Shown here piece by piece: positions 40,301 through 46,300 of a stretch of DNA of 64,000 nucleotides. A program made the position numbers. Source of the stretch: an uncultured Nitrospiraceae bacterium (GTDB lineage: Bacteria; Nitrospirota; Nitrospiria; Nitrospirales; Nitrospiraceae). Where the stretch lies: assembly GCA_963846575.1 (NCBI GenBank), contig CAWJWJ010000002.1, positions 608,001-672,000 on the forward strand. The letters run 5' to 3'. Each line of letters opens with the position of its first letter. The stretch's first letter is position 1.

Positions 40301-43300
40301 TCGAAAAATAGTGAAGATGTTGCGTCATGCCGGGGCAAAAGAAGTCCATATGCGGATCAGTTCCCCGCCAATTGTGTCACCTTGTTTTTACGGAATTGAC
40401 ACACCAACCAAGAAAGAGCTGATTGCCTCAAGTCACACAACCGAAGAAATCCGGAAGTACATCACTGCCGATAGCCTGGCCTATTTGAGTTTGGATGGAA
40501 TGTTGAAAGCCTCGCCGGGTGTCCCAGCGCAGTATTGCAATGCCTGCTTCACGGAACGGTACCCCATTTCGTTTACACGTGCCGAGGAACTTCAATTGGG
40601 TCTCTTCGAGTCCTCCCGCTAAGACTTCCACGCGCCAGTCACCTGCTTGCGCGTAATCTAGGATCGTCTGGACTTCTCTTTCTGCCTTGTTACACTCCTG
40701 TCATGTCCCTTGTTAGGAAATATCAATTGATCGCTGCCACTGGATTCGTGGTGGCTGCGATCCGAATCGCTTTGCGGATGACGAGTCTTCCGCGACTCTT
40801 AAGGTGGTTGACTTGCAAGGCAGTATCTCGAGGGCACGGTCCACTCGCAATGGAAGATGTTGCATACTACGTTGAACGCTGGCTTGCGCTGGCTCCGTAC
40901 AACTCCAAGGGAAACTGTCTTCCTCGTGCCTTGACTCTATATTGGTTTGCCCGCCGCGCCGGTGTCCCCGTCCAGTTTCAATGCGGTGTGATGAAGATTA
41001 GTGAAGGCATCGAGGGCCATGCCTGGTTGATGCTGGATGGGCGGGAGTTCTTTGAGCCATCACCGTACTGGCGTGACTTCACCGTGACGCTTAGTTTCCC
41101 TCCCATGCCCGTCCCGCGGAATACTCAAGCGTCGAATTCTAAGTAAGAGTCTCACTTTCCCTAGAAGCCTGGCCACGATTTTCCTGCGCCTCTCGTTTTA
41201 GTTCTCCTGTTCCCTGTGACACGATCTGTCTATCCTGAGCCTTCGCACAGATCGATTCAACAATCCATCCAACTGTGTCTTCACTCCGACGGCTCCCCCA
41301 AATGGGAGAGCCACCCCAACCTCACGGGAATAGATAAGGCATGGGTGAGAAAGTATGTTTGCCCTTCGGAGGCGAGGACAACGGCGACGGGCAGTGCTAT
41401 CGCTATGATTGCTGTCGCACCGCCGGGAAGAGCGTTCGCTATAGTAGTCGGTTTCATGGTCGTCGTATCAGGAGGGTGCATGCCTGCCATTACACACGAT
41501 TCGGTTGATCGGATGGTCGAGTTGTCTCACCTTTTTCCAAAGCGAAACGAAGATGTACATAGCACGATGTTGGATGGAGAAAGCGTGTTGCTGAATCTCC
41601 ACACCGGACGCTATTACACCTTGAACGTCGTGGGATCGATTGTGTGGGATTTGTCTACGGGAGATCGGTCGCTCAACGAGGTTGTCGCGACTATCTGCGA
41701 AAAGTTTGATGTTACGGCTCGGCAAGCGCAAGACGATCTGCTTGATCTCGTCGTCGAACTTGATCAGGAAGGGCTCATTCAAACCGAAAGGAGGTGAAGT
41801 AGATGGATCAACAGAAGAAAACCGTTTATGTGAAGCCAACGCTTGTGAAGCACGAGTTGCTGCGCGATGTGACGGCTCTACAGCTTTCCCGCGTGCTCAA
41901 TGGAGAGCATCAGGTAACGTAACGCCGACGCTTTGATGAGAGTGAGGGGGGAGTTGGTCGGTCTTCTCGACCGGCCAGCTCCCGTCTGCGGAAGTGATGA
42001 GCATAGTAGCACGAGGGGCTGAAAGGAGAGTGGGTAATGTCGATGACATTGGCAACAAATGAGCTTCTCCTCTCTGTCCATGGCATCGATCTGGTCTTTA
42101 CTACCAATTCTCCAGAGTTGGCGAATTCCGTGGCGGCGTTACTGCGTCATTTCCAATGCCAGGCTGTCAATGCGGACGCCATGCTGATGCAGTTTGATAG
42201 GGTCGAGTGTCGTGAGGACATCCCACTCCAGATTTCGAGCACCGCATCCTTATTGTACAGCGGCTCCGGCCTTATGATTGGGGGCAAGAGGAAGGCAACC
42301 TGGCTATGCGACATTTACTCGGAAGAGGGGAGATTGATCGCAGACTTCCACGAAGAAGGAGTCGTGGTTATCGATGGAACATCGCAATCTGTACTAGGAT
42401 ACCTTGTGCGGCCTGAGCTTATGGCGTCAGATATTCAGGTCAGTTTTGTGCACCTTGCCATGATCGAACTCCTCAAACGGAGAGGTCTATATACCTTTCA
42501 TGCCACGGCACTGGAAAAGAATGGGCGAGGCATCTTGATCCCCGGGTTCAGCGGAAGAGGTAAAACCACCTCGTTCCTATCCCTACTTAGAGCTGGATAT
42601 CGCTATATATCGGACGATCATCCATTCTTTCGACTTGCCGGTGATCGCGTGGAGATTCTGCCTTATCCACTCAAAATTAACGTAACCGAAAGTACCGTGT
42701 CGTACTTTCCCGAATTGCGTGATGCGCCGGCAACCGTTCTGCGCGCCGGTTCGCCTAAACGTTATTTTTACGTTGATGATGTATATCCTGGGCCCTTAGG
42801 AGCACCATGTGACGCAACGATGATTCTATTTCCCGAAATTGCTGACTCCGCTCATAGCTGCTTAGAGCCACTCTCGAAACGGCAATCGTTGGAATTGATC
42901 CTCCCGCATTCATTGCTCGTGTACGATGCACAAGTCGCTCGTCATGAATTTCAAGCGCTCGTTAAGTTGATCGATCAGGCAAGTTGTTACCGGTTGCACT
43001 TTGGGCGCGACGTTCTGGATTTGCCTTGGCTGGTGACGCCGCTCCTGGAGAATCAAACAATGAGGCGCGAGCACTGAGAATGAGGAAACCTCTGCAGCCT
43101 ACGGCAATCCGCCGGAATCGATTTCAGTCAAGGGATAGTTCGCACAGGTGCATGACGCCAAATCCAGTAACATCTCAGATGCATCTGGAAGGTCGGCTCA
43201 TCGTGCTCTGTGCGCGGACGACGATCAATGAGTTTATCCGGGTTGAGGTCGAGGATTTGATCAGTGAGACCATCGATTGGGATCGCGTATGGCGGATGTC

Positions 43301-46300
43301 GAGGCAACAGGGAGTGGCGCCACTGGTGTATCGCACCCTGTCCTCCCTTTGCCCTTCGGTGGTACCGTCCCACATCCATAACGCCTTCCGTCGGCACATT
43401 CAGGCCAATACCCTTTTAAACAGTTTGCTTGTCAAAGAGTTAGTGGCCGTGATGGAGGGTTTGGCGGCAAAGGGCATTCGAGCCATTCCCTTCAAAGGCA
43501 TAACGCTCGCCATGACTGCCTATGGGGATCTTAGCCTGCGTGAATGCGCGGACTTGGATTTAATCGTCGAGCAAGGGGCAATCGCTCCGGCCAGGCAGGT
43601 ACTATGGTCCCAGGGTTATCAGCTCACTAGTCAGGATAGAGAACAAGCCAGTGAGAGCGATGAACCCTATCATTTCTTCCAGAAAAAGAACGGCATTATC
43701 GCCGTGGATCTTCAGTGGGTAATGGCCAGAAGCCACTTTTCCTTTCGACTGGACCGGAGCGAATTCTGGGCCAGGCTGAAGCCGGTGCATTTACCGGCAG
43801 GAAGTGTGATGGGCCTTAGCCCGGAAGATCTCCTAATCCTGCTTTGTGTGCATGGATCAAAGCACGCGTGGGAACAGTTAAAGTGGACCTGCGATGTGGC
43901 CGAGTTAGTCCGACGGCGACCGACGTTGGATTGGAGCCGGGTCCTATTTCAGGCGGACGAATGGGGTTGTCGTCGAATGGTGCTCCTGGGCCTGACGATG
44001 GCTAGAAACCTGTTCGGCACTGTGCTGCCAGGTGCTATTCTCCACGAAATTGAAATAGATGCAGATATCCCAACGCTGGTCCGCCACATGCCAAATCAGT
44101 TGCTGAAGGAATCTGATGTGGGCATTGATGAAGGTTGCGCGGATGCCCTGTATATGTCTATCAAGGATGCTTGGCTGGAACGTTGGAAGCTTGCTGCTGC
44201 GCTCTGCCGTGAGGACGCGAGCGTGCTCACCATGTCACTTTCTTGGTTCCGGCTGCAATCAAGGCTTCGGGTATTCTATGCATGCATTCAGCCACTCCAT
44301 CGGATTATCGTTAAGTGCGTGCCCTCCACTCGGATTCGCAAAGCGGTTGTTCGGTGGCTACATAACATTGGCTGACGGCAGATTTCTCACCCGAAACGAA
44401 CCGCTCCCGTTCTTCTCAGCATGTGCTCCATTCTAAGTGGTTGCTCCCGAAAAAATTCGCATGCTAGGATGCCCCATGTGCCGATAGGGTTTATTGCTGA
44501 ACGTTGACCGCGGAATCAAAGAGACGGGGCATTCTTCGGTCCAGGATCCGGGCCCCCGGAAGGAGGTTCTTATGAAGCGCACTTTGATAGCTCTAGTCAT
44601 CGCACTAGCACCCTTCTGGGCGACAAGTCTCATTTGGGCCGCTGGATTTTTTAAAGTTGGCGAGAAGGCACCGGCGTTTGCATTGACCTCAGTCACGGGC
44701 GATGCCGTTTCACTTGAGAGCATGAGGGGAAAAGTGGTCGTGCTGGGTCTGTTCCACATCTGTGATCCATGTATGATGCAAGGGACAAATTTAGAAAAGG
44801 TTCATGAAGCATTCGCTGGAAAGAATGTGGCCGTGGTCGGTATTAATTCAGCGGGGAACACCAAGCGCGACGTCGGAGAGTTTCTGAGTGCGTTTCCGGT
44901 CAAAATAACGTATCCATACTTACTTGACCCTAATAAGGCTACTGATAAAGTCTATGGCGGCGGAAAGTTTATCCCCAACGTATATATCATCGATCAGCAA
45001 GGCGTGATCCGGTGGCAGCGTGTGGGCAATATGGAACTGGCCGGCGCCGATGTGATCATACAAGAGGTAGAACAGCTTTTGGCGTCTGCGCCGGCTTCTG
45101 CCGGAGCCATGTAAACGGAAAAAGAGGATCCATGGACGAGTGGGAAGAGGGTAAAAAGAAGTTTCTCGAGGTTGTGCGTGGGATTCATGAGGCCGTGGAA
45201 GTTGTAATCCCGACGAAGCCGACCAACAATATGTTTCTGATCTCCCTGACGAAAGGGCCAAATCGGAAATTTGTCACCGTCTCAGAGGACGATATTATCG
45301 ATCTCCCCAGCGAAGCGAGCATCCGCGAAAGGGTCACAAAGACCTTGCAAGACGCGATTTCAGCATTGTAATTCCGAAAATCAAGGCGACGGAAGTGAAG
45401 CAAATCCTCCCTGGCATCTGGCAATGGTCTTGGTTCTCTGAAGACAAGCAGATCGACTTTAATGGTCTATTTCTCAGCGTAGGGGAACATAAAATTCTGG
45501 TTGATCCTCCTTCCATGGCCGCTGAAACCAGCACATTTATCAGACGTCAAGGAGGGCTGGATTACATTATCGTCACGAATCGGGACCATACACGGGAAGC
45601 GGCTGCCTATCAGTCTGAGTTTCGTTGCCAGGTGTATTTGCCTGATGCCGATGCGCCGCAAATGGACTTGAAAGCGAACAAAACGTTTAGAGATGGCGAA
45701 CTTCTGCCTGGTGGGATTTGGGTCATACAACTAAATGATCAAAAATCGCCCGGCGAATCAGGCCTATTTATTCAGCAGGGAAAAGGTGTGCTGATCGTCG
45801 GTGATGCGCTGATCGGAAAACCGACTGGGTTCGTGAGTCTGTTATTGCCTGAAAAATACAGTGACCCCGACAAGGCAAAGGAAGGGCTCCGGCGCTTGCT
45901 GAAATACAGCTTCGACTCGATTCTAGTCGGGGATGGCGCTAGCATTGTAGGTGGCGCCAAACAAGCAGTAGAGCGGGCGCTGCAGGCATAGGAGAGCATG
46001 GCGCTTCGAAACGGACTTTCAGAGGAACTCAACCGCCAAGGCAATGAGCACTTTGCGCGCGGGCACTACACGGATGCGTATGCCTGCTACGCGAAGGCGT
46101 TGGAGTGTGATCGGTTGACGGGTGATCATCGAGCGCTCAGCGCGACGCTGGGCAATCTTGGGAATATCTGCGCAGTCAGCGGTCGTCGAGAGTCGGCGCA
46201 GACTTATTATCAGGAAGTGCTTGAACTGCAGAAGGTTCTTGGAGATGAGAAGGGGATAGGAACGACGCTGGCCAATCTTGGAAACTTACGTGCCGATGCG

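Follow-up and report, generated by a model that had tools for sequence, protein, structure and literature searches.

A cyclase-less cassette with a lasso-type leader and B2 peptidase in Nitrospiraceae, predicted to make a linear phosphopeptide

The window analysed in this work is a stretch of 64,000 nucleotides from the genome of an uncultured Nitrospiraceae bacterium (GCA_963846575.1, contig CAWJWJ010000002.1; genome completeness 99.93%). Located 3' of purF are five intact, co-oriented genes encoding a lasso-type B2 peptidase, an RRE, a 39-residue precursor peptide, an HprK-like kinase and an NTP_transf_5 enzyme (Table 1). This gene order and these families had been described in an earlier note on the window, and profile matches and translation confirmed all five genes. 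The neighbours of the cassette are purF and a thioredoxin-like gene. A scan for consensus promoters and terminators returned no promoter-like and two terminator-like sites, which was not above shuffled sequences.

Table 1. Features of the cassette (positions within the window)
Feature	Position	Strand	Basis or remark
Extended -10 promoter-like box TG-n-TACACT, predicted	40688..40696	+	6 nt before B2 ATG
Lasso-type B2 cysteine leader peptidase, 147 aa, Cys72/His106	40703..41146	+	NF033537, PF13471
Discrete RRE (PqqD/B1), 105 aa, ATG preceded by AGGAGG	41480..41797	+	PF05402
Precursor Shine-Dalgarno AGGAGG	41789-41794	+	8 nt before ATG
Precursor gene, 39 aa	41803..41922	+	Translation, Shine-Dalgarno, selection, relatives
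Precursor leader, Y-17, P-14, L-12, H-9, T-2	41803-41877	+	
Predicted core LQLSRVLNGEHQVT, 14 residues	41878-41919	+	Cleavage site placed by analogy
Predicted target Ser4	41887-41889	+	Modified residue assigned by analogy
HprK-like P-loop peptide kinase, predicted, 346 aa; H155, G170, G173, G175, K176, T177, D193, D194	42037..43077	+	
NTP_transf_5 nucleotidyltransferase, 431 aa, D158-x-D160	43080..44375	+	PF14907 E 4e-66

The B2 peptidase, the only one in the genome, scored 51 bits on NF033537 (cut-off 33) and matched PF13471 with E 3.5e-19; its C72 and H106 are invariant in all 14 aligned B2 proteins, four of which come from true lasso clusters. The start proposed in the earlier note (contig position 648703), upstream of the gene call, proved right, since lengths of 140-147 aa are seen in the genus homologues and the extended -10 box just upstream is conserved. 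Of 34 related B2 loci, 17 have a comparable box some 6-12 nt ahead of the B2 start, among them all eight from the window's genus and genus g12. Because this box is so close to the ATG and no Shine-Dalgarno sequence is present, the B2 transcript is probably leaderless or near-leaderless. The box was not among the sites listed by the consensus promoter scan. The RRE matched PF05402 (E 1.4e-16) and NF033536 (61 bits, under the cut-off of 80), and in the PDB it matches the lasso RREs TbiB1, at E 2.9e-9, and PbaB1 (entry 9X90), at E 1.7e-7. Most genus homologues share its length of 105 aa.

Translation of the precursor gene bore out the lasso leader residues Y-17, P-14, L-12 and T-2 claimed for it. 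The loose lasso rule alone proves little, because 10 short ORFs of the genome fit the pattern Y-x-x-P-x-[LIV]-x9-T; that the gene is real follows from its position and conservation. Over 24 codons, 28 distinct Ser4-type genes differed from the window's gene by 228 synonymous and 102 residue-changing differences (118/39/286 by codon position), and the precursor is thus under purifying selection. It is duplicated in several genomes. The window core carries Leu-Asn-Gly at residues 7-9, with no Asp or Glu there, and Glu at position 10, and it ends in Thr; a C-terminal Ser is found in 15 of 143 relatives. Leader position -8 is Glu, where lasso precursors of the same order have Gly. The motif I/L-Q-L-S-R-V had been described as kept in the genus. 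In the Ser4-type cores S4-R5 is indeed fixed (R5 in 26/26), but the other positions vary (I1 22/26, Q2 19/26, L3 22/26, V6 20/26).

The kinase assignment, considered weak in the earlier note, turned out to be stronger. TIGR04352 and TIGR04355 each gave E 8e-15 and 54.7 bits, below the cut-off of 200, and all eight motif positions of BsfK (H148-G163-G166-G168-K169-S170-D186-D187) were matched with identical spacing, Thr replacing Ser at one. The motif is conserved across 14 aligned homologues except in an orphan copy (L065). The structural model (pLDDT 90) has a PEPCK-type P-loop fold, with PEP carboxykinases as best fold matches (E 8e-10). In a tree made by a quick method and with long-branch warnings, the cassette kinases group in a single clade of 40 rows with SH-aLRT 98, distinct from the lasso kinases; within this clade the Ser4, Ser3 and Lys-Tyr types occupy separate subclades. 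BsfK (PMC10368454) and LppK (PMC13381572) both phosphorylate core Ser3. Strict regioselectivity for position 3 has been reported for BsfK (PMC10368454), and the position of the window's Ser, at 4, counts against the assignment of this residue.

D158 and D160 of the nucleotidyltransferase are invariant in 17 of 17 sequences, and the enzyme has the same Pfam-type role as PsmN, LppN and BsfN. Its model (pLDDT 86) gave weak fold matches (E about 1e-4 to 1e-2) to MenT1, LnuA, FKRP and ANT(2'')-Ia. In PsmN the D-x-D motif is essential, and the enzyme is needed for addition of a hexose to the phosphate (PMC9266682, PMC6993621). Deletion of lppN had no effect in a heterologous host (PMC13381572), which counts against a capping step.

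The absence of a lasso cyclase, with all AsnB genes more than 250 kb away, had also been claimed and was borne out. The genome holds nine PF00733 matches, seven of them strong, and these seven proteins begin with M-C-G or a GTG-encoded V-C-G, Cys1 being kept. All seven pass TIGR01536 and miss both lasso-cyclase cut-offs, and the nearest gene is about 555 kb from the cassette. On the lasso-cyclase model NF033535 (cut-off 525), two of them reach 349 and 336 bits, which counts against a ringless reading. A Nitrospirales lasso cyclase used as query matched 10 of 201 genomes from the order and none of 15 from the genus; this query missed 2 of the 12 cyclase loci of the positive control described next, and at most six candidates were scored per genome. 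As a positive control, 12 of 20 other loci were found to be complete lasso clusters with a Cys1-less cyclase, and Asp was present at core 8-9 in seven of the eight precursors found in these controls.

We collected 143 distinct related precursors by a leader pattern requiring Thr(-2), Arg(-5) and Asp/Glu(-4) and excluding Gly(-8); counts of these residues are true by construction and were not used as evidence. Features left free by the pattern include Tyr(-17), present in 142 of the 143, and those of the core. Ser occurs at core position 3 or 4 in 111 precursors (27 +/- 5 in shuffles), and 28 of these 111 cores lack any Asp or Glu. Acids that could form a ring are near chance level, an Asp or Glu at 7-9 being found in 60 of 143 cores (50 +/- 5 shuffled). 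Among the 26 Ser4-type cores, many of them close kin, 11 have such an acid (7.4 +/- 2.0 shuffled), which counts against the ringless reading. A further 29 precursors have Lys-Tyr and no early Ser. Their clusters retain an intact-looking kinase although Tyr is not accepted by BsfK (PMC10368454) or LppK (PMC13381572), which counts against a kinase that acts on an early core Ser.

No AsnB/cyclase match was found in any of 75 named related loci, and a single ordinary Cys1-AsnB occurred in a set of 40 loci. In the 37 of the 75 named loci that have at least 5 kb on each side, B2 was present in 36, the RRE in 35 and the transferase in 35. An ABC exporter occurs in 23 of these 37; the earlier claim that there is no transporter holds for the window's genus, where an exporter orthologue was not found in any of 31 genomes (best E about 1e-69, about 30% identity), and fails beyond it. 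A profile search of 1.84 billion representatives returned 550 proteins at E 1e-30 or better. Two genomes carry a lasso cluster and a ringless cluster together. B2, precursor and kinase are jointly missing from two genus genomes.

We consider it likely that the five genes form a RiPP pathway, derived from phosphorylated-lasso clusters, which makes a linear phosphopeptide. Each chemical step, the cut site and the order of steps are modelled on the Bsf, Lpp and Psm systems. The RRE would bind the Y-x-x-P-x-L leader of the precursor, and the kinase, aided by the RRE, would add one or more phosphates to core Ser4 with the leader still attached. B2 would then cleave after Thr(-2)-Ala(-1) and yield the 14-residue core with a free N-terminus, whose phosphate the nucleotidyltransferase may cap with a nucleotide or sugar unit; ring formation would have no part in the pathway. 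Regarding mechanism, the earlier proposal of a lasso-derived pathway without knotting, in which Ser is decorated by kinase and nucleotidyltransferase, is well supported by the lack of a cyclase genome-wide, the cores and close published analogues. If this chemistry is correct, we tentatively favour, at somewhat under even confidence, a non-toxic peptide associated with the cell, as a signal or in an envelope-related part, rather than a weapon for export. The reasons are that in the genus the cassette is kept at a single site next to purF, the dedicated exporter has been lost and no immunity gene is seen.

The same genes could serve another end if phospho-Ser were an activated intermediate to which the transferase joins a nucleotide, a polyol or sugar phosphate or a cell-surface polymer, the peptide acting as carrier or primer. 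We regard this as unlikely, as no glycosyltransferase or polysaccharide gene is found among the neighbours of the cassette and PsmN-dependent products are simple hexose caps. It would nevertheless fit the phosphodiester-forming transferase FKRP among the fold matches, the exporter-less genus, the location of LPP clusters in capsule loci and the need of LppN for a partner or substrate missing in the heterologous host (PMC13381572); fosfazinomycin biosynthesis, too, has a nucleotidyltransferase next to an RRE, and there it joins an NTP surrogate and a peptide by ligation. Decay of the cassette in G083 and G171, an orphan kinase with altered catalytic residues at the purF site in genus g5 and the missing exporter orthologue would suit a shrinking remnant of a larger Nitrospirales cluster (exporter, ATP-grasp pair, hydroxylase), with little or no product in the genus, or a kinase that acts on another protein. 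Such a reading is quite improbable in view of the kinase gene in 12 of 14 other genus genomes, the intact catalytic residues and the selection on, and duplications of, the precursor.

A true lasso peptide would require one of the seven AsnB proteins to act in trans, which is highly improbable. The leader, RRE and B2 are all of lasso type, two AsnB proteins exceed 330 bits on NF033535 and some Ser4-type cores do carry an acid at 7-9. However, we rejected this candidate, since all seven proteins retain the Cys1 of a glutaminase and have their best scores as amidotransferases, in contrast to the 12 cyclases from the order. In addition, the query of 15 genus genomes gave no cyclase orthologue, the window core has no acid at 7-9 and nine of the 26 Ser4-type cores are acid-free throughout. 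Beyond the preferred linear phosphopeptide, a speculative and rather doubtful extension is that the lasso-derived leader/RRE/B2 chassis of Nitrospirales is a plug-in platform with swapped maturases: kinase and transferase on Ser3/Ser4 cores, and ATP-grasp pairs, a hydroxylase-like enzyme and a GMC oxidoreductase on Lys-Tyr/Tyr cores. The window would then hold its minimal, exporter-less form, whose product might stay in or on the cell, bear a new modification (e.g. a nucleotide or polyol via Ser4-(poly)phosphate) and serve nitrite oxidisers as a signal; a Tyr-acting HprK-like kinase could belong to the Lys-Tyr branch.

The novelty claimed in the earlier note gained no support. Cyclase-less clusters with RRE, HprK kinase and NTP-transferase that make linear phosphopeptides (LPPs) were already published in May 2026, the example being lppA-K-B-S-D-N of Paenibacillus alginolyticus (Popov et al., Nat Commun 2026, PMC13381572), and Lys-Tyr relatives sharing the leader are listed in a table of graspetides published in 2026. 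The part of the claim that is still new is the Nitrospirales version, which depends on B2. The B2-cut Ser-type branch, the Ser4 variant and the exporter loss were not found in print in a search without most subscription journals. The 2023 survey of Kretsch et al. reportedly deals with RRE-peptidase pairs outside lasso clusters and may already list these loci.

Among known systems, lasso clusters share with the window the [YW]xxPxL...T(-2) leader, B1 and B2, but the window has no cyclase and no Asp/Glu at core 7-9. The bsf lasso cluster of Bradymonas sediminis (bsfA, B1, B2, C, D, K, N; PMC10368454) likewise unites B1, B2, kinase and nucleotidyltransferase. Its leader-bearing precursor is phosphorylated on an early core Ser, faster with B1, as predicted for the window, and BsfA, read by eye from the printed gene, shows His at -9 and resembles Ser3-type relatives at the start of its core; however, bsf includes a cyclase and an exporter and carries Ile(-2), whereas the window has no cyclase, Thr(-2) and Ser4. 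Paeninodin (PadeK) and pseudomycoidin (PsmK, PsmN) also combine kinase and NTP transferase tailoring with a required D-x-D motif, and a weak structural likeness to ANT(2'') enzymes is common to their systems and the window transferase (PMC9266682, PMC6993621), but these peptides are cyclised and modified on a C-terminal Ser. Graspetide group 39, a predicted group not among the two characterised ones (Carter et al., ACS Chem Biol 2026, PMC13097080), includes Nitrospirota precursors with an identical H-E-L-L-R-D-[IV]-T leader, and a transglutaminase-fold protein is noted in these clusters. Its cores are of the type Lys-Tyr...Asp, with ATP-grasp ligases, whereas the window has a Ser-type core and no ATP-grasp gene (tblastn with either ligase gave no match in the genome at E 1e-6).

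The LPP clusters, as described in PMC13381572, are closest in logic. Both systems combine a discrete RRE with an HprK-like kinase and an NTP transferase and lack a macrolactam cyclase, and they have one to three precursors of conserved leader and variable tail, equally spaced leader Tyr, Pro, His and Thr, and an early core Ser as kinase site, demonstrated for Ser3 in LPP and predicted in the window. Compared with the LPP leader consensus YxxPxVLxHQxIxFETxxS, the window lacks F-E before Thr and its Ser is placed differently, five residues past the leader Thr (four in most relatives, three in LPP). LPP precursors are cut right after Thr by a SipW-type serine peptidase, for which the window genome has no TIGR02228 match, instead of by a B2 cysteine peptidase, and are served by an MsbA-like exporter, lost in the window's genus. 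LPPs are described as restricted to Bacillota, and the term 'Nitrospir' has no match in six supplements of that paper. The window's RRE seems to be nearer to those of lasso clusters, a hint that the cyclase was lost separately. The shared leader links the predicted Ser-type phosphopeptides to predicted graspetide group 39, the genomes with both lasso and ringless clusters offer a Gram-negative test of RRE discrimination, and the NTP_transf_5 reaction, which the Psm and Lpp papers did not settle, could be studied on a small scale with the five-gene cassette and its 14-residue core. The window product is most likely a differently trimmed cousin of the LPP family rather than a new class, and it extends to a B2-dependent form in nitrifying bacteria a linear phosphopeptide logic that, in 2026, had been described for Bacillota alone and with a SipW peptidase.

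Five same-strand genes lie between the end of purF and the start of a thioredoxin-like gene (Table). The latter gene is part of the conserved purF neighbourhood and is kept where the cassette is missing; in genome G001 it directly follows purF, which fixes the boundaries of the cassette. The upstream start of the B2 gene proposed in the earlier note is correct and is preceded by an extended -10 box.

Table. Features of the cassette and its flanks (window coordinates)
Feature	Position	Strand	Remark
purF (end)	40622		
Extended -10 box	40688-40705		range includes the B2 ATG, which the box precedes
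B2 peptidase	40703-41146	+	NF033537, above cut-off
RRE	41480-41797	+	PF05402
Precursor ORF, 39 aa	41803-41922	+	lasso leader spacing; strong Shine-Dalgarno site
HprK-like kinase	42037-43077	+	HprK-like protein
NTP_transf_5 transferase	43080-44375	+	NTP_transf_5 protein
TlpA/ResA-like thioredoxin-fold gene	44494-45114		after the cassette

Ten short ORFs of the genome fit the lasso leader spacing, so that spacing alone is weak evidence for a precursor. Comparison of 28 distinct Ser4-type genes with that of the window revealed 228 synonymous versus 102 non-synonymous codon differences, and 286 of 443 base changes fell at third codon positions. Selection, as read from these codons, is stronger evidence than leader spacing that the precursor gene is real. 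The cassette is real, intact and conserved.

The kinase matches the catalytic motif of BsfK, from the Bsf lasso cluster, with identical spacing. Its model (pLDDT 90) has PEP carboxykinases as best fold matches, and these enzymes have the P-loop fold in common with HprK. Cys72 and His106 of B2 are kept in 14/14 sequences and D158-x-D160 of the transferase in 17/17; weak fold matches of the transferase are LnuA, ANT(2'')-Ia, MenT1 and FKRP. In the PDB the RRE matches TbiB1 and PbaB1, both lasso RREs; LppB (9X8Z), an entry possibly absent from the copy searched, is not among the matches.

In the genome (99.93% complete, 2 contigs) B2 and NTP_transf_5 are encoded once each and PqqD twice. The second PqqD gene adjoins a radical-SAM gene (L012, G000:C2:1314268-1317459), a pair probably devoted to PQQ biosynthesis. 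Among nine PF00733 matches, seven are full AsnB proteins, which reach 401-511 bits against the TIGR01536 cut-off of 267 but 159-349 bits against the cut-off of 525 for the lasso cyclase model; the nearest gene is ~555 kb from the cassette. As all seven retain Cys1 and fall below the lasso-cyclase cut-off, the absence of a lasso cyclase claimed previously is borne out. Among 20 control loci, picked by a B2 or weak kinase match outside the main set, 12 are complete lasso clusters in which B1 and B2 accompany a cyclase lacking Cys1; most also have kinase and transferase. A control cyclase used as query matched 10 of 201 Nitrospirales genomes and 0/15 of the window's genus, with a sensitivity that missed 2 of the 12 control lasso loci. 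One AsnB-like gene, an ordinary Cys1 enzyme in L064, occurs in the 40 handle loci (up to 19.5 kb), and no AsnB or cyclase match was found in the 75 named loci, which are all labelled Nitrospira, Nitrospiraceae, Nitrospirales or Nitrospirota save one uncultured bacterium. The window cassette falls outside the lasso clusters.

Kinase matches are present in 62 of the 201 genomes, 48 of them with E < 1e-70 (counted from the table of matches), and in 12/14 other genomes of the window's genus. Only two of these 48 (G075 and G173) match the cyclase query, each inside a separate lasso cluster. Both genomes carry a ringless cluster and a complete lasso one (L059 and L091 in G075; G173:C8 and L094 in G173). 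YxxP leaders occur in all, with Tyr-Gly at -9/-8 in the lasso cluster and His-Glu in the ringless one, a natural test of RRE discrimination.

In 37 named loci with at least 5 kb on each side, B2 was found in 36, the RRE and the transferase in 35 each, an ABC exporter in 23, and an ATP-grasp ligase and a fatty-acid-hydroxylase-like gene in 10 each. No exporter orthologue was found in any of 31 genomes of the window's genus. Genomes G083 and G171 have the purF site without B2, precursor and kinase genes. In another genus, g5, this site holds an orphan kinase without the remaining cassette (L065:8836-9972, L080:9214-10368); the L065 kinase has altered catalytic His and Walker A Lys. Two near-identical cassettes in opposite orientation lie ~14 kb apart in G129:C3 (L053, L054), and one cassette has tandem divergent kinase genes (L074:8277-10451). 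A sister cassette, ordered B2, kinase, radical SAM, RRE and transferase, lacks a cyclase (L075:6635-10975, L076:8133-12497, L102), and the patterns used found no precursor in it. In L067:3921-10840, a locus without B2 or transferase, two further proteins come after RRE and kinase: one of 471 aa contains PqqD, and one of 830 aa combines O-fucosyltransferase-like and 2OG-Fe(II) oxygenase domains.

The box before B2 recurs ~6-12 nt before the ATG in 17 of 34 related loci (L044-L050, L053-L058, L062, L077, L078, L083). It is kept even where B2 is operon-internal, 3' of the transferase; hence a separate, near-leaderless transcript may cover B2 and the exporter that follows it.

Since the handle and named sets may overlap, precursors were counted as distinct sequences. 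With core positions counted from the predicted cut, the 143 precursors comprise 85 Ser3, 26 Ser4-Arg5 (the window's type; core length 9-14 residues) and 29 early Lys-Tyr, which leaves 3 of other kinds. Ser occupies core position 3 or 4 in 111/143 (27 ± 5 in shuffles) and an acidic residue positions 7-9 in 60/143 (50 ± 5); these statistics are descriptive, without significance test, because kin are not independent. Acid-free cores number 28 of the 111 Ser-type; in contrast, Asp occurs at position 8-9 in 7/8 lasso precursors of the order. The predicted core of a cultured carrier, Ca. Nitrospira defluvii (L110), is IQLSRVLDRTPA. In the 66 named loci with a precursor, an ATP-grasp gene occurs in 12 of the 13 that have Lys-Tyr cores; five loci pair the ligase with another core type, and the remaining 48 lack both ligase and Lys-Tyr core. 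In a quick tree 40 of 55 kinases form one clade (SH-aLRT 98), to which eight lasso kinases do not belong; its subclades, Ser4 with 9 rows, Ser3 with 12 and Lys-Tyr with 5, largely track genus too. The true lasso clusters of the order (L084-L094, L098), most with kinase and transferase, have predicted cores beginning with Ala, Lys, Thr, Ser, Gly or Glu, and 6/8 of their precursors carry Ser within positions 3-5, as in the Bsf type. Three precursors in L063:10146-10733 have Tyr5 and a Gln-Ser-Asn-Gly-Pro motif without early Ser, and adjoin a GMC oxidoreductase pair without an ATP-grasp gene.

From the observed genes, catalytic residues, selected precursor and missing cyclase, we consider it likely that the cassette makes a linear 14-mer. 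The RRE would bind the leader, the kinase phosphorylate Ser4 of the precursor, B2 cleave after Thr-Ala and the transferase cap the phosphate, each step by analogy with BsfK and BsfB1/B2 (PMC10368454), LppK (PMC13381572) and PsmK/PsmN (PMC9266682, PMC6993621). For cleavage after Thr-Ala the calculated monoisotopic [M+H]+ is 1593.87 for the bare core, 1673.84 with one phosphate, 1753.80 with two and 1835.89 with phosphate plus hexose; cleavage after Thr would give 1664.91, and a lasso form 1575.86. The core Ser at position 4 rather than 3 counts against the analogy, and the Lys-Tyr clusters retain the kinase, although characterised kinases refuse Tyr. A carrier or primer role with different chemistry is unlikely. 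Less likely again is a remnant: the gene set is lost at some purF sites, and that of the window keeps its catalytic residues. The slight excess of acids in Ser4-type cores (11/26 versus 7.4 ± 2.0) counts against a linear product, but a cyclase acting in trans, for which the genome offers Cys1-type AsnB proteins, is the least probable reading and very improbable.

Among known systems, the linear polyphosphorylated peptides (LPP), described as linear analogues of phosphorylated lasso peptides (Popov et al. 2026, PMC13381572), have no cyclase but combine an exporter with RRE, HprK kinase and NTP transferase; a SipW-like peptidase cuts the leader and Ser3 is phosphorylated. The window cassette would work likewise, but is not classed as LPP because the SipW peptidase and the exporter, two defining features as given there, are both missing. 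Window-type leaders also accompany an ATP-grasp protein pair, one divergent (L052, L055-L058, L061, L066, L070, L073, L077, L081, L097); fatty-acid-hydroxylase-like (OlsE-like) genes, one or two per locus, occur in several of these loci, and a GMC oxidoreductase with gluconate-dehydrogenase subunit 3 in others. The Lys-Tyr precursors of ATP-grasp loci match predicted graspetide group 39, where relatives with the window's leader appear (Carter et al. 2026, PMC13097080); at least 12 precursors among the rows listed there have the full H-E-L-L-R-D motif, all of Lys-Tyr type. We found no description of B2-cut Ser-type clusters in the literature searched, one relevant survey lying outside it. Added here are the Ser4-Arg5 subtype, the genus-wide exporter loss, a candidate separate B2 promoter, and the tie to graspetide group 39 through the common leader.
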